From contig CAXXWX010000005.1 of the NCBI GenBank assembly GCA_963675745.2, positions 64,001 through 128,000 on the forward strand: a stretch of DNA of 64,000 bases. The letters run 5' to 3'. Below, one piece after another: positions 29,401 to 35,376 of this stretch. The position numbers are program-made. The stretch is from Phycisphaerae bacterium (GTDB lineage: Bacteria; Planctomycetota; Phycisphaerae; UBA1845; Fen-1342). The stretch's first letter is position 1. Every line of letters begins with the position of its first letter.

Positions 29401-32400
29401 ACGATCAGCCGCGCTCGACGATAGGCTTCCGCGGGCGGCTTGTCATTGTTGTAGTTCGGGCCGCTGTCCTGCACACGGTTGGCGTCGTCATACTGGCGAT
29501 CGGGGTTGATGACCATTGATACCAGGCGGTCGGTGTCGTGGCTGTCCATCAGGTTTTGCAGCACGAGCGTCGCAGGCAGCGGATAGGCCAGCCGCAGGTC
29601 CGTCAGCCGCCGATCGAATTCGCTGACGCTGATCTTGTTCTCGTGATCGATGATCCAGCGGACCACCGCGTTGGCAAACTCGTAGTTCATGACCGCGTCG
29701 AAGTGTTCGCCGTCGAGCCACGTATCGGCCCGGTCCCAGATTTCCCCCGTGATATAGGCGTCCGGGTTGATCGATTTCACCAGGGCGCGCCACTCGACCC
29801 AGAACGGAGCGGGGATGCTGCCGGGCACATCCAGGCGCCAGCCGTCGATGCCGTCGCGCGGATCACCGTCGCCGTCCGGGTCCATCCAACGGCGCGTGAC
29901 ATTGAAAATGTGTTGCTTGGCCTCTTCACTTGCCAGACCGTTCGCCGACTTGCGAAACTCCGGCAGGGCGTCGAACCCGCCCCAGCCGACATACTCAAAG
30001 GGCTCCCACGACGTCACGCTGAACCAGTCGGCGTACGGCGAATCCTGTTTCTTCTCGAGCACATCGACAAACGCCGGATGGGCCGTGCCCACATGGTTGA
30101 ACACGCCGTCAATGATGATGTGAAGTCCGGCGGCGTGAACCTGCTCGATCAGCTTCAGGAAGCGCTTGTCGGACTTGGTCCACTTCCAGGTCGCGGGGTC
30201 ATTGAGATCCTCGCCGGCTGTGATTTTGTCGTAGTCATCAGCGGGCCCGGCGCCAAAGCACGGGTCTATGTGCAGGTAATTGCGTGTGTTGTATTTGTGG
30301 TGACCCTGGGCAATAAAGACCGGATTCAGGTATAGCGCACCGACGCCCAGTTTCTTAAGGTAACCGAGCTTCTCCGCCAGCCCATCAAAATCGCCGCCGT
30401 ACATGCGGTCAAACACATACCAGTTGTAAAATGACTGCCCCTGCGCCTCGCGCTCTTTCTCCCAGGGTTGAGCCGTAAACCAATCACTCGTCCACGGGTG
30501 CGCGGGCTGAACGTCGTTCGACGGGTCGCCGTTGCGGAAACGCTCGGGCATGATCTGGTACCAGACGGTGTGCTTGGCCCAATCCGGGGTCTTGAAGACT
30601 TGCGTGTCGGCGAAGCTCTTGGAGTACACGTTGGGGGCGCTGGCGCGCAGGTTGCCGTCTTCGAACACGAACGTGTAGCGGATCGTGGTGACATCGGGGT
30701 CGTCGTTGTCGCTCAACCGGACGTCGGCTTCGTACAGGTCAAACATCGGAGTTTCGCGCGCCAGGTGCATCGGCGTAAGCTCGCCCCCTTTGACCGCCAC
30801 CCAAGCGCGCTGTACGTCGTTGGCGAGCACGCGACAACGCAGTAACATGCGATCCGTCGCCAGCGGCTGAAAGTAGAGTGGCAGTTCGCCGCGGTGCTCG
30901 ATCCCCATGGCGTTTATGCGGCCATCGCCGCGCTGTGCCTCCGAAACCGACAGGTTGGCGAGTTCGCCGAGCCGCAGCAGCGAGTTGCTGCCGCCGCGCT
31001 GGTCGTCGGCCCCGTCAGGATTCTCCGGATCGGGAAACCACGCCCCGCCGTCCACGACAAACTTGTACTCGTGTCGTCCCGGCGCCAGGTCGACCGACGT
31101 CATCCAGTAGCCGTCGCCGCGCGGGCCACGCAGGCGCGTGGTGGTGGAGTTCCATCCGTTGAACGTGCCGGCGAGCGTGACCGATTGTGCGTCGGGACCG
31201 GGCTTGAAACGAAACGTGCAGTGCCACAGGCCGCCGTCGGCCATCTCGGCCTGAACGCTGGGGGGCAGACGCCCCGGGTCAGTCGCCATCTCTACTTCGA
31301 GTGGCGGTGCTGGTGGCCATGATCCCGCGACGGCAACCCCGGCGAGTAACCCCACGAACAGCAGCGCCCAGCCGCCCCGCATCATCAGCCCTTCATCACA
31401 ACGGTATCTCATCGGCGTATCTTCCTGGCTTCGTCTCGTACATGGATGCCGCGAGTGGCAAACGTTCCGCCTATGGTAATGGCGTAGGCGCCGTTAAGCC
31501 AATATCATGCGTCGATTAGACCGGAGTTGCGGCACTTGTCTGGGAGTGGAATGGCACCGCAGGATAACCACATCACCACCGACCGCGCGCAACCGATCTT
31601 GACCGCTATGCGCGGCGTATTCTGGGCCGCGCTCGCGACTTATGTCGCCTGTCGGTTGCTCTGCGGTTCTCCTGTTCGAATCGATGGTCCGCAGTGGTGG
31701 CCGTGGCTGCACGGGGCGCTGGCTTCGTTGCTCCTTCTGCTGGCCGCCGGGCGCGTCGTGGTCGCCACGGTCAACCGAAAGCTCTTCCGCGAGATTCGGG
31801 TCGACGTCGCTATCTGCGCCGTGATCCTCGTCGTCTGGGCGTTTGGCTGGGTCATCTCGCGGCCCTATCGGCTCGCGGCGGAACGCGGCGATCAGATCGA
31901 ACTTGTGCTGATGAACTGGTCCGGCGGTGGTGGCCAGAAGGAAGAGCAGATCGTCGCCGACATGATCGACCGCTTTCAACGCAGCCACCCACATATCAAG
32001 ATCAAGCGCATCAACCCCGGCGACTCCGGCTCATACAACACCAAGCTCCAGACCATGATGGCCGCCGACGTGCCGCCCGACGTCTTTTACATGGCGTCCG
32101 AACGCTTCTCCACGTTTGCCGCCAGCGGCCACCTGGCTGACCTCGAAGCACTCATCGCCGCGGATAGCGCCAACAGCCGCCCCACATTGGATCTGGCCGA
32201 CTTCTTCCAGAGCACGGTCGATTGCTTTCGCTTTGATGGCGAGACCACCGGTCGCGGAACGCTGTATGGCATCCCCAAAGACTTCACCACCTGGGGTTTC
32301 TACTACAACAAGAACCTCTTCGACCGCGCCGGCGTGCCCTACCCTAGCGACGATTGGACCTGGGACGATTTCGCTGACGCCGCGCGACGCATCGGCGCTC

Positions 32401-35376
32401 TGCCCGGCGTGCTCGGCGGCGCCGAATTCTCCTGTTGGGACGACCCCATTCGCAGCTATCTGTGGACCTACGGCGTCGACGTGGTCGACGAAGACTTCAA
32501 CTCGCGCGTTTTTGATCCACCGGTCCACAAGATTCTCGCGCAGCTTCGCGGCTGGCGCTTTGACGAGGAAAACACGCTGGTCAGCGGCGACAGCCAAGTC
32601 GCCCAGGGCCAGGACATTTTCGTCACCGGACGGGTTGGCATGGTCGGCCCGCTGGGACGCTGGGTGGTGCCGACCTACCGCGCCATCGAGGAGTTCGACT
32701 GGGACTTCGCCCCCCTGCCGCGCGGCACACAGCGCGCCAACGTGGTGGCGACGGTTGCGTGGTCGATGAGCGCGCGGTCAGAGCATACCGATGAGGCATG
32801 GGAGCTGCTTAAGTACCTGAGCGGACCCGAAGGTCAGCGCCGCGTGGCCGAATTGGGGCTCGCCATCCCGACGATCAAATCCGTCGCCGATACAGACGCC
32901 TTCAAAGACCCCACACTCAAGCCGGACAACGACCAGGCCTACCTCGACCAGGCGGCCTACGCGCGCATCGCGACGACGCCCGGTTATCCGGAGTGGAAGA
33001 ACACGCTCTCGAAGCGCTTGGAGGAGTTTCTGCGCTCGGGCAAACCGATGGACCAGACGCTCAGAGCGCTGGAGGCGGACTGGGCCCGCGATCGCGACAA
33101 CCCGTTGCGCGTCGGCCACTATCCCCCGGTGAGCTGGGCCTGGGTTGCCCTGGTCGTGCTGGCGCCCCTGCTATTGGTGCTGAGTATAGGCGGCACGCTT
33201 TGGTGGCGCGGCCGACCTCAACGCATCGCCCTGCGCGAGGAGCTTGCCGGCTATGGATTCGTCAGTCCGTGGCTGATCGGTTTCTGTGTGTTCATGGCGT
33301 TTCCGGTGATTCTGTCGCTCGTGTTGAGCTTCTCCAAATGGGCCGGATACTCGACGCTGGCTCAGGCGCAATGGGTCGGCCTGGCGAACTACAAAACGCT
33401 GCTGTTTAACGACCCGCGCTTCTGGAGCAGCCTCTGGGTCACCGCCTATTACGCGCTTTTCGCCGTCCCCATCGGCCAGGCGCTGGCGCTCGGTGCGGCG
33501 GTGTTGCTGAACCACGAGCTCAAGTTCTCAGCGTTCTTCCGCAGCGCGCTATACCTGCCCAGTGTGCTGGCGGGCGTGGGCATCGCGATTCTGTGGCGTT
33601 GGGTGTTCGACGGCGAAGTCGGCCTCATGAACACATACCTGCTCGCGCCGGTGCTGGGACCATTTGGCGCCGAGGCACCCAAATGGTTCACCGGCGATGC
33701 GCGCTGGTTCGGACCGCCGGCCTTCGCGGTTATGAGCTTCTGGGCCATCGGCGGCACGATGGTAATCTACCTCGCCGGCCTCAAGGGCATCCCCAAAGAG
33801 CTATACGAAGCCGCCTCCATCGACGGCTCGACGGTGCTTCAGCGCTTCCGCAACGTTACGCTGCCGATGTTGAGCCCGGTGATGTTCTTCAACTTCATCA
33901 TGGCGATCATCGGCTCGTTCCAAGTCTTCACGCAGGCGTTTGTGATGACCGGCGGCGGCCCCGGAGACGATACGCGCTTCTACGTGCTGTATCTCTACAA
34001 CCTCGCGTTTGATGACAGCCACATGGGCTACGCCTCGGCGATGGCCTGGTTGTTGCTGGTCGTGATCCTGAGCCTGACGATGCTCACCATGTGGGGCTCG
34101 AAGCGGTTCGTTTACTATGAGGCCCTCAAATGACCCGCATGACCGCACCCCAGCTAAATCCCACCGCACGCCGCCCGATGGAGCGTGATTGGAACCGCAT
34201 CGGCTACATGACAATGGTCTACGGCCTATTGACCGTCGTCGCCGTGCTGATGCTGTTCCCGATGTGGTGGATGATCGTCGTCAGCCTGGAGTCGGCGGAC
34301 GAAGCGCGCCAGGCCGCCGCCGCCGCCGCCGGGTTTGACCTGCTTCCCAGTCAGCCGCAATGGGTCAACTATCCCGACGCACTGGCGGAGATGGGAACGG
34401 CGCGCTGGCGCGGTTTCCTCGACGCTTTCGCCAACACCATCGTGGTGACGACACTGAGCGTCATCGGACAGGTGCTTTCGTGCAGCCTGGTCGGGTATGC
34501 GTTCGCGCGCGTACGGTTTCGCGGGCGCGGCATGCTGTTCATCTTCATGATTTCGACCATGATGCTACCGCCCCAGGTCACCATGATCCCGATGTTCATC
34601 ATGTTCCGCTCGTTCGGCTGGATTGACACGATCCTGCCGCTGGTCGTGCCGACCTTCTTCGGCAACGCATTTTTCATCTTCATGTTCCGGCAGTTCTTCT
34701 CGCAGATACCCGAAGCCCTGGTCGAAGCCGCCCGCCTGGACGGCTGCGGCGCATTGGGCATCTGGTGGCGCATCATGCTGCCGCTCTGCAAGCCGGTCAT
34801 CGCGATAACCGCGATCTTCACCTTCATGTTCGTCTGGAACGACTTCCTCGGACCGCTGATCTACCTGCACGGCGAGGAACAGGCCACGCTCGCCATCGCC
34901 CTGAACTCTTTCCGCAACCAGTTCGGCGGCGTCGGCCAGGTCCACCTGCTCATGGCCGCCAGCATAGTCACCATGACCCCCTGCGTGATCCTGTTCTTTG
35001 TAGCCCAAAGACAATTCGTCGGCGGCCTGAGCATCGGCGCCGTCAAGGGCTGAGGTTTGCTTCCCGATCGCCGGCGCTGCTGGCTGCCGACGACTCCCCG
35101 GTCGGACGCACGCGCAGTATCGGTGGCGTGATTGAAACCTGATGGCCCGGGGCGACGGCGCGCGTGAGAAACACCGATCCGCCGACCACCGCCCCGTCGC
35201 CGATTTCCGTCTCGCCGCCGAGCACGATCGCGTTGGCATAGATCGTGACGTTGTTGCCGACCGTGGGATGACGCTTGTGTCCGCGGATCAGGCGCCCGCG
35301 CTCGTCTTTGGGGAATGAGAGGGCGCCCAGCGTGACGCCCTGGTAGATCTTCACGTTGTCGCCGATGACCGTTGTT

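Follow-up and report, generated by a model that had tools for sequence, protein, structure and literature searches.

In the genome of a Phycisphaerae bacterium, one gene within the analysed stretch of 64,000 nucleotides (hereafter the window) encodes a protein that, judged by its sequence, is the first and larger of the two membrane subunits of a CUT1-type ABC importer and carries a receptor domain of its own (Table 1). Our preferred reading, to which we give a probability of about 0.72, is that this subunit belongs to a CUT1-family type I importer, holds the receptor within its chain and serves the uptake of alpha-glucan oligosaccharides. One bacterium with this fusion design has been studied before, and the architecture is common in several little-studied phyla.

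The open frame spans 31527..34133 on the forward strand, and a start at ATG 31551, preceded by a GGGAG-type Shine-Dalgarno sequence, gives the 860-residue product. An N-terminal membrane anchor comes first, then a CUT1 sugar-binding domain (SBD); a further membrane helix and a brief cytoplasmic linker connect this domain to a MalF/UgpA-type permease of six helices. Pfam places SBP_bac_1 at residues 133-429 (E 7.7e-41, 141.5 bits against a cut-off of 26), SBP_bac_8 at residues 138-454 and BPD_transp_1 at residues 648-847 (E 7.3e-13, 49.1 bits against a gathering score of 26.4). These coordinates are those of the first-pass annotation, which had rightly described a binding protein and a permease on one chain with a second permease next to them. 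The protein falls below the cut-off of every NCBIfam model, and its AF2 model is confident (mean pLDDT 90.4, pTM 0.84).

Table 1. Features of the fused locus and related genes. Positions count along the window.
Feature	Position	Strand	Description
Fused SBP-permease gene	31551..34133	+	860 aa, single open frame
N-terminal extension, res 1-83	31551..31799	+	two further hydrophobic stretches, ~22-40 and 52-76 (hydropathy)
N-terminal membrane anchor helix, res 84-106	31800..31868	+	predicted N-in/C-out
CUT1 sugar-binding domain, res 113-521	31887..33113	+	Pfam, phmmer, VIA-align; predicted extracytoplasmic
Linker membrane helix, res 527-553	33129..33209	+	predicted return of chain to cytoplasm
Six-helix MalF/UgpA-type permease core, res 568-860	33252..34130	+	Pfam BPD_transp_1, phmmer, hydropathy, AF2
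EAA coupling motif, ~res 751-774	33801-33872	+	conserved residues
Second permease, MalG/UgpE type	34130..35053	+	307 aa; BPD_transp_1 6.6e-19 (Pfam)
Divergent intergenic region, GH13 gene/transporter operon	31413..31550	.	138 bp
GH13 neopullulanase/cyclomaltodextrinase-like enzyme + CBM48	28926..31412	-	828 aa; Pfam; signal-peptide-like N-terminus
GH77 4-alpha-glucanotransferase (amylomaltase)	27336..28904	-	Pfam 1.4e-155
Alpha-glucan/maltodextrin phosphorylase, DUF3417 type	24994..27108	-	Pfam
LacI-family regulator	42586..43635	-	LacI + Peripla_BP_3 (Pfam); 8.5 kb downstream; candidate only
Paralogue on contig C19			912 aa; SBP_bac_1 59-372, BPD_transp_1 765-891

Hydropathy and AF2 agree on the anchor helix, the SBD, the linker helix and the six core helices and, together with the flanking charges, predict that the SBD lies on the extracytoplasmic side. 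The anchor helix (hydropathy peak 2.50) is found in 19/19 rows of alignment A1, with R104 invariant and V101 nearly so, and no Cys lipobox was seen at it. As for the linker helix (hydropathy peak 2.51; residues 529-553 in the AF2 model), its sequence varies apart from W529, and the basic stretch directly after it fits a cytoplasmic location. The predicted topology thus supports a receptor tethered to the inner membrane, as had been proposed for this protein. The region ahead of the anchor is less certain. The extension up to residue 83 is absent from most homologues in alignment A1, AF2 gives pLDDT values below 50 at residues 1-13 and 38-53, and some relatives align already from residues 20-43; possibly, not all of it is translated. 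Since residues 1-80 are weakly conserved and most homologues begin 10-15 residues ahead of the anchor helix, the true start may lie downstream of ATG 31551.

The SBD has the bilobed fold and the above-threshold Pfam score that mark a CUT1 solute-binding protein, and structural comparison with oligosaccharide-binding proteins gives Z 33-42. The closest solved proteins bind arabino-oligosaccharides (AbnE, 6rjy; phmmer 8e-43, 26% identity) and cycloalternan (Lmo0181, 5f7v; 7.8e-27, 24% identity; Z 41.7, rmsd 2.8 and 382 of 388 residues aligned in VIA-align), not maltose. E. coli MalE is absent among the 58 phmmer matches at E<=1e-3, and identity to solved MalE-type proteins is only 16-20%. The permease core in turn matches SugA (7cad, 8.2e-15), the closest solved permease, and MalF (2r6g, 3.5e-10). 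The EAA motif is the coupling motif in the cytoplasmic loop of such permeases; in alignment A2 (121 sequences), E753, A754 and P772 are invariant, and A755, D758, G759 and L771 are conserved in at least 90%. The gene for the second permease, which resembles UgpE/MalG in NCBIfam with a score under the cut-off, overlaps with its start the stop codon of the fused gene, and a homologue of it lies downstream in 27/29 fused loci. No ATPase gene occurs within the locus. The whole genome has a single OB_MalK-type ATPase, on contig C16, which passes the NCBIfam cut-off for the UgpC subfamily (458 against 432 bits) and is the candidate partner.

The substrate is suggested by the neighbouring genes. The divergently transcribed GH13 enzyme matches TVA II/neopullulanase (PDB 1bvz) at 1.6e-90, and the GH77 and phosphorylase genes beyond it reach 603 bits for NF011080 (cut-off 477) and 773 bits for TIGR02094 (cut-off 192), respectively. 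Inspection of the N-termini of the latter two enzymes revealed no signal peptide. In the 138 bp that separate the GH13 gene from the transporter operon, no sigma-70-like promoter and no inverted repeat beyond a single weak one were seen. Among relatives, the alpha-glucan context noted in the first-pass annotation is retained: GH13/CBM48 genes adjoin 24/29 fused loci, GH77 genes 14/29 and phosphorylase genes 12/29, and none of the three occurs at any of 51 unfused loci. A GH13 neighbour is missing at three fused loci (L022, L073 and L078) although the flanking DNA is sufficient. Because of this recurrent adjacency to GH13/CBM48, often with GH77 and phosphorylase as well, alpha-glucan uptake is the best reading, and the cargo is most likely alpha-glucan oligosaccharides, either maltodextrin-like or pullulan-derived. 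Alternatively, a transporter of the same build might carry something other than alpha-1,4-maltodextrin, such as alpha-1,6-linked, alpha-1,3-linked or cyclic glucans or arabino-oligosaccharides. The ligands of AbnE and Lmo0181 and the low identity to MalE-type proteins speak for this, as does the assignment of the neighbouring GH13 enzyme to a group also active on pullulan and cyclodextrins. However, identities of 24-26% to a solved binding protein do not fix specificity, no arabinan-related genes were seen within the window, and the amylomaltase and alpha-glucan phosphorylase genes kept linked to the transporter suggest cytoplasmic products with alpha-1,4 linkages, so that we regard another cargo as unlikely, if still worth keeping in mind.

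The fused gene is conserved in its family, with orthologues in 23/24 other genomes (the exception, G307, is 84% complete); outside the family but within its order, a full-span fused orthologue occurs in 1/16 genomes. Both domains are present on 120/120 homologues listed, which are 743-937 aa long. Database names for homologues are either 'solute-binding protein' or 'permease', and this two-way naming flags a systematic mis-annotation of the fused proteins. The architecture itself is more widespread: the combination of binding protein and permease was confirmed in 13/14 tested long frames from a sample of Verrucomicrobiota and in 8/8 from a sample of Armatimonadota, and such fusions fall into several cross-phylum clades. 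The restricted distribution first described therefore holds for the orthologues but not for the architecture, which is frequent in the sampled members of those two phyla. Within the genome under study, the parts of the C19 paralogue are arranged in this order as well, as previously stated. The count of two fused binding proteins among ten was reproduced for the two but not for the ten: seven PF01547 matches have E<=1e-3, two of them in fused frames (881 and 918 aa) and five in frames of 490-555 aa.

In unfused relatives from Chloroflexota, Bacillota and other phyla, the genes are ordered binding protein, permease, permease, and the binding proteins of other phyla bear Cys-lipobox or Tat-type signals. 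As this is the usual order, one could suspect that a sequencing or assembly error has joined two adjacent genes. The conservation data refute this idea, whose probability is close to nil: besides the family genomes and the listed homologues, 29/80 loci from independent assemblies show the single fused frame (the remaining 51 are unfused), and a dedicated membrane helix of ~27 residues plus a linker, missing in unfused genes, joins the two parts. It is also conceivable that the fused chain is a precursor, cleaved at the anchor, near the linker helix or at both, to yield a binding protein that is free or held by one anchor only. The N-terminal helix does look like a long signal sequence, the linker helix shows little sequence conservation, and in a second copy in genome G304 a break within the cytoplasmic linker puts the SBD part and the permease part into different frames, although a frameshift error or a pseudogene may account for that break. 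We nevertheless deem cleavage very improbable. No conserved AxA-type site follows either helix (19 and 121 aligned sequences), the predicted periplasmic end of the anchor is conserved at V101 and R104 and modelled with pLDDT 86-95, and the predicted cytoplasmic end of the linker helix is out of reach of signal peptidase, which is inactive on that side of the membrane.

On the preferred reading of an intact fused importer subunit, helix 84-106 would anchor the chain in the cytoplasmic membrane with the SBD (residues 113-521) on its periplasmic face, and helix 527-553 would return the chain to the cytoplasm, where a short basic linker would lead into the six-helix MalF/UgpA-type permease with its EAA motif. 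This subunit would pair with the MalG/UgpE-type product of the overlapping downstream gene and draw its power from ATP through the only MalK/UgpC-type ATPase of the genome. The exported GH13/CBM48 enzyme would free alpha-glucan oligosaccharides in the periplasm, and the importer would deliver them to amylomaltase and phosphorylase in the cytoplasm. The receptor would be held at 1:1 stoichiometry beside its own translocator, with either end only a few residues away from the membrane; the linkers between the SBD and its flanking helices comprise only ~5-15 residues. In MalE, the N- and C-termini lie on different lobes. If this also applies to the SBD, its closure on a ligand would exert a pull on the helices that pack against the permease. 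One may speculate that the clamped SBD works not as a shuttle but as a hard-wired gate that never dissociates, and that fused CUT1 subunits form several old clades common to Planctomycetota, Verrucomicrobiota and Armatimonadota and could be a general, hitherto undescribed way for these diderm phyla to capture sugars without a free pool of periplasmic binding proteins, a tentative proposal that we consider unlikely.

By itself, the locus is ordinary, a maltodextrin-type ABC importer with a domain fusion of a known kind. Its interest lies in the setting. In two reviews, free periplasmic binding proteins are attributed to Gram-negative bacteria and tethered or fused receptors to Gram-positive ones (PMC6906923, PMC9045158). 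Contrary to this picture, a putative alpha-glucan uptake system is conserved throughout a planctomycete family with its receptor and permease fused, and fusions of this build are found again in many of the genomes sampled from three phyla, Planctomycetota, Verrucomicrobiota and Armatimonadota, for which literature searches gave no description of this architecture. Such importers offer natural 1:1, non-dissociating material for mechanistic work beside the single studied Bdellovibrio case. As that fusion is published and fusions are frequent in Verrucomicrobiota and Armatimonadota, the wide planctomycete periplasm, invoked in the first-pass annotation to explain the tether, is neither a needed nor a specific rationale.

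The Bdellovibrio bacteriovorus transporter is the nearest precedent. This diderm, too, has a MalE domain fused to MalF, with a characterised structure (Licht et al. 2019, Res Microbiol 170:1-12; PDB 6FFL; PMC6906923), so that a tethered receptor can no longer be called unexpected in a diderm; MalE fused to MalF is described there as transport-competent (PMC6906923, PMC7756565). Both are CUT1 importers with one binding domain on a MalF-type subunit and a receptor:transporter ratio of 1:1, and the maltodextrin-type cargo of the Bdellovibrio system is that suggested here by gene context. The fused protein is nevertheless not an orthologue of Bdellovibrio MalE-MalF or of the E. coli-type MalEFGK2 subunits. 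Its SBD shares 16% identity with 6ffl_A (Z 33.5, rmsd 3.7, 366 aligned residues), its permease lacks the large MalF-type P2 loop, with core helices 1 and 2 only ~28 residues apart in the AF2 model, and it scores 58.5 bits against a cut-off of 392 for the NCBIfam MalF equivalog. Because of the low identity, the missing loop and the low score, the fusion likely arose independently, in a different CUT1 subfamily. With LpqY-SugABC, UgpBAEC and MalEFGK2, the system has in common the permease core, the EAA motif, a second permease and an ATPase of MalK/UgpC type, but their receptor is a separate soluble or lipid-anchored protein, whereas here it is part of the permease chain. OpuA and GlnPQ of Lactococcus lactis come from other ABC families, those of osmolyte and amino-acid importers. 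They are likewise type I importers whose permease chain carries one or two binding domains, but they are homodimeric, with two or four receptors and monoderm hosts, in contrast with the predicted heterodimer with one receptor and a membrane helix on each side of it. Finally, the NanM-transporter fusions SiaF and NanZ, reported from Bacteroidetes, Planctomycetes and Verrucomicrobia (PMC8461474), come from overlapping phyla and are similar in that an additional membrane helix attaches a periplasmic protein to the N-terminus of a sugar transporter in the inner membrane; there, the fused part is a mutarotase enzyme and the transporters are secondary ones, and here it is a receptor on an ABC importer.

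Judged by its sequence, the gene looks functional and encodes a subunit of an alpha-glucan-associated sugar ABC importer of the CUT1 family in which receptor and permease are fused. The unbroken frame, the two Pfam domains of its product and the second permease gene behind it (see the table) bear out the fused build and gene order described in the first-pass annotation; its observation is confirmed and its interpretation partly supported. Hydropathy and an AlphaFold2 model of the fused protein (mean pLDDT 90.4, pTM 0.84, with a 121-sequence alignment as input) give the same order of parts: an anchor helix, the sugar-binding domain made of strands and helices, another membrane helix, a short arginine-rich stretch and a permease of six hydrophobic helices with an EAA-type motif. 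In the EAA region, E753, A754 and P772 are invariant over the 121 sequences, and A755, D758, G759 and L771 are conserved in at least 90%. The binding domain, predicted to lie on the outer side of the membrane, is joined to both flanking helices by linkers of about 5-15 residues only. Residues 1-80 contain two more hydrophobic stretches, are poorly conserved and are in part of low confidence in the model. Some relatives align from residues 20-43, and since most homologues start just before the anchor helix (10-15 residues upstream of it), the conserved unit comprises helix, binding domain, helix and six-helix permease, with eight helices in total. Scanning for promoters, terminators and inverted repeats, in the operon as well as in the divergent intergenic region, revealed nothing exceeding shuffled expectation.

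Positions of the fused gene, its parts and neighbours, and related loci (nucleotides of the window, residues of the fused protein, or named loci; G000 is the window's genome)
Feature	Position	Strand	Details
Alpha-glucan phosphorylase, DUF3417-type	24994-27108	opposite to fused gene	
GH77 4-alpha-glucanotransferase	27336-28904	opposite to fused gene	
GH13 + CBM48 enzyme	28926-31412	opposite to fused gene	upstream of fused gene
Open frame of fused gene	31527..34133	+	unbroken
Fused gene	31551..34133	+	860 aa; ATG preceded by GGGAG-type ribosome-binding site
Anchor helix	res 84-106		
Binding domain	res 116-521		
SBP_bac_1	res 133-429		Pfam, E 7.7e-41
SBP_bac_8	res 138-454		Pfam
Membrane helix after binding domain	res 529-553		
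Arginine-rich stretch	after res 553		short
Permease helices	to res 860		six
BPD_transp_1	res 648-847		Pfam, E 7.3e-13
EAA-type motif	about res 751-774		
Second permease, BPD_transp_1	34130..35053	+	307 aa; start overlaps stop of fused gene
RNase E/G domain	36029-38580	-	two overlapping frames
PTS enzyme I	39310-41070		
Large WD40-repeat proteins; ECF sigma factor adjoining Ser/Thr kinase	7208-9499, 43778-46864, 58496-62564	-	
Fused paralogue	G000:C19 = L087:10779-13517	-	912 aa; SBP_bac_1 59-372, BPD_transp_1 765-891
Second permease of paralogue	L087:9028-10782	-	
MalK/UgpC-type ATPase	L090:5702-7135 (G000:C16)	+	
Unfused CUT1 binding protein	L088:6653-8113 (G000:C3)	-	
Unfused CUT1 binding protein	L089:6078-7562 (G000:C3)	+	
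Second fused copy of G304	L111:1223-2995 and 2623-3654 (G304:C1:~824.7-827.2 kb)		frame switch
Ignavibacteriota fused homologue	L073:9938-12400	+	
Long fused frame, G208	L108:210-5228	-	

The fusion of the two domains is real. A homologue database search scored 8000 proteins, 721 of them at E<=1e-3, and all 120 homologues among the matches listed (743-937 aa, 50-73% identical) have both domains, as do 99-100% of the members of the closest ESM Atlas clusters. In the scan of species-representative genomes with two peptide patterns, one frame spans both parts in 29 of the best 80 loci; the remaining 51 have separate substrate-binding protein and permease genes, or the permease alone. The separate binding proteins of unfused relatives carry a lipoprotein (Cys) or Tat-type signal. 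The conserved N-terminal motif with which their permeases begin is found after the linker helix in the fused proteins, so that the fusion inserted one membrane helix between two genes that are ordinary in other respects. In a 4-contig relative (G304), the second fused copy switches frame inside the cytoplasmic linker, yielding an anchor-binding domain-helix ORF and a separate permease ORF; the gene may have been re-split naturally or be a pseudogene, or the sequence may contain a frameshift error.

The window's genome encodes a fused paralogue, as the first-pass annotation had reported, with both domains in one frame and the same order of parts, plus an insert of about 120 residues in the permease. 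This insert (residues ~640-760) has two extra hydrophobic segments, and some orthologues of the window's fused gene likewise have inserts at this permease loop in a 19-row alignment. The permease encoded downstream of the paralogue has a predicted periplasmic insert of about 340 residues between membrane helices 1 and 2, to which Pfam assigns no family.

As for the likely cargo, we counted neighbours by tblastn (window's neighbour proteins as queries, E<=1e-10) at the 29 fused and 51 unfused loci. GH13/CBM48 genes adjoin 24/29 fused loci, GH77 genes 14/29 and phosphorylase genes 12/29, versus 0/51 unfused loci for each; the second permease is found at 27/29 fused loci. Linkage of fused loci to alpha-glucan genes, the setting proposed earlier, is strong. 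Among the five fused loci without GH13, two (L015, L026) have too little upstream DNA and three (L022, L073, L078) have enough. The nearest relatives of the window's GH13 enzyme are TVA II, neopullulanase and cyclomaltodextrinase (1bvz, E 1.6e-90). The enzyme has a signal-peptide-like N-terminus, which neither the GH77 enzyme nor the phosphorylase has. Together with the synteny, this distribution of signals fits an alpha-glucan uptake pathway, in which alpha-glucans would be cleaved in the periplasm, the resulting oligosaccharides imported, and disproportionation and phosphorolysis would follow in the cytoplasm. The closest solved binding protein by sequence is AbnE, specific for arabino-oligosaccharides (E 8e-43, 26% identity). 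Fold searches with the whole fused model returned matches to the binding domain only and so bear on that domain alone; Lmo0181, which binds cycloalternan, is among its closest solved relatives (Z 41.7, rmsd 2.8, 382 aligned). Identity to MalE-type proteins is 16-20%. A plain 'maltose' label is therefore disfavoured, and it is the gene context that points to alpha-glucan oligosaccharides as ligands.

We found no ATPase gene in the fused locus. The genome has one OB_MalK-type ATPase, which passes the NCBIfam UgpC subfamily cut-off. Its gene is isolated, flanked by HtrA-like protease genes and nusA and distant from all four CUT1 permease loci. Those loci correspond to the four clearest of seven SBP_bac_1 matches in the genome, two fused (C5, C19) and two unfused (C3), and one ATPase is likely shared by the CUT1 systems. 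The two unfused binding proteins have a hydrophobic N-terminus of about 20 residues without a lipobox cysteine. This segment may be a cleaved signal, or it may be an anchor, in which case these proteins would be held in the membrane instead of being free or lipidated. Elsewhere in the window, the RNase E/G domain is divided: ORF 36814-38580 covers profile positions 1-55 and ORF 36029-37246 covers 52-270, and their join near 37000 suggests a frameshift or sequencing error. Large WD40-repeat proteins, an ECF sigma factor adjoining a Ser/Thr kinase and PTS enzyme I are also encoded there.

The limited spread claimed in the first-pass annotation stands for orthologues: 23 of 24 other family genomes have a fused one (the single genome without it is 84% complete), and a full-span one occurs in 1/16 genomes from other families of the order. 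The claim does not stand for the architecture. In the 80-locus scan, 27/28 loci labelled Planctomycetota were fused versus 2/52 others, but this apparent confinement to one phylum did not survive direct sampling of Verrucomicrobiota and Armatimonadota. With the full-length query (E<=1e-20), 122 of 301 genomes of the own phylum gave a match, full-span in 14 other genomes among the matches listed; Pfam identified 14/17 further long frames as fused, with more divergent binding domains. The permease part (residues 555-860, E<=1e-30) matched in 76 of 201 Verrucomicrobiota genomes, and among the matches listed 58/125 lie in frames of at least 716 aa, in 42 genomes. By Pfam, 13/14 long frames there are fused, and one genome of 42-44% G+C has at least six copies. 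The same query matched in 124 of 151 Armatimonadota genomes; 34/150 among the matches listed, beside 454 further matches, lie in frames of at least 767 aa (25 genomes), and 8/8 long frames are fused by Pfam. Frames without a recognisable binding domain at E<=1e-5 (L098, L110, L123) were left out as fusions, and L109 has no family. Receptor-permease fusions are thus frequent in the three sampled phyla. Planctomycetota and Verrucomicrobiota are diderm, and Armatimonadota stain Gram-negative. One Chloroflexota genome gave 43 matches, none in a frame longer than 566 aa. Some of the open frames that hold fused genes are 1084-1672 aa long (L108, L120, L124, L132), with 340-950 residues before the binding domain; either these residues form genuine additional domains or the high-GC frames are over-long. 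Outside the PVC group, a fused homologue is encoded by one Ignavibacteriota MAG, on a contig of 1.63 Mb. Over the permease part it shares 56% identity with the paralogue of the window's genome, to which it is sister in trees, suggesting transfer between phyla.

A single fused clade was rejected with the first careful tree, a maximum-likelihood tree of 106 rows over the permease part. This tree calls for 6 changes of the fused state, or 4 without two unconfirmed long frames, and well-supported branches force at least 3; when the 44 confirmed fusions are all constrained to a single clade, the log-likelihood falls by 66.7 units (p-AU 0.010). An earlier quick tree had 9 changes of the fused label, and the AU test against it left the single clade unrejected (p 0.74) because this free tree is poor, its log-likelihood being 95 units lower than that of the careful tree. 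A second careful tree, combining a hand-picked 83-row subset of the first with 21/22 Verrucomicrobiota and Armatimonadota rows (L123 left out), requires 7 changes, of which a minimum of 4 are forced. Its fusions fall into three well-supported clades, each with mixed phyla: the window's clade with the paralogue, the Ignavibacteriota copy and three Armatimonadota copies (17 rows, support 96/95); one of Planctomycetota, Armatimonadota and Verrucomicrobiota (11 rows, 100/99); and one of Planctomycetota and Verrucomicrobiota (12 rows, 98/99). Mixed clades and forced changes favour multiple events of fusion or fission and ancient fused lineages common to several phyla, with a certainty limited by long branches and a single 300-column domain.

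Planctomycetes accumulate dextran in their periplasm, which is enlarged (PMC5394234), and the first-pass annotation proposed that the fusion keeps the receptor at the inner membrane of a wide periplasm. This idea is unspecific, as the same build is just as common among the Verrucomicrobiota and Armatimonadota sampled. Of more interest are two points that remain: fusions are frequent in three phyla for which we found no description, and the receptor would, according to the model, be clamped by a membrane helix at each of its two ends. The literature within reach, outside which lie bioRxiv supplements and subscription journals, yielded no description of binding protein-permease fusions in Planctomycetota or Verrucomicrobiota, nor an account of them in Armatimonadota; text searches in a Planctomycetota review from 2025 and a CAZyme genomics paper from 2024 found mention of neither ABC transporters nor fused proteins.

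Fused or tethered receptors are presented as a Gram-positive trait in reviews (PMC6906923, PMC9045158), and the fusion had been called unexpected in a diderm. However, a MalE homologue fused to MalF has already been published for the maltose transporter of Bdellovibrio bacteriovorus (Licht et al. 2019, as described in PMC6906923), so that the kind is known, in a diderm and for maltodextrins. According to the same source, the fused form is active and is further stimulated by added soluble MalE; it is also cited, in PMC7756565, as evidence that MalE need not dissociate. The Bdellovibrio binding domain (PDB) matches our model of the fused protein at rank 27 (Z 33.5, rmsd 3.7, 366 residues, 16% identity). 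In contrast to the Bdellovibrio protein, the one described here belongs to a different CUT1 subfamily; it falls short of the MalF equivalog model (58.5 bits vs 392), and its permease lacks a large P2 loop. The two fusions are probably independent.
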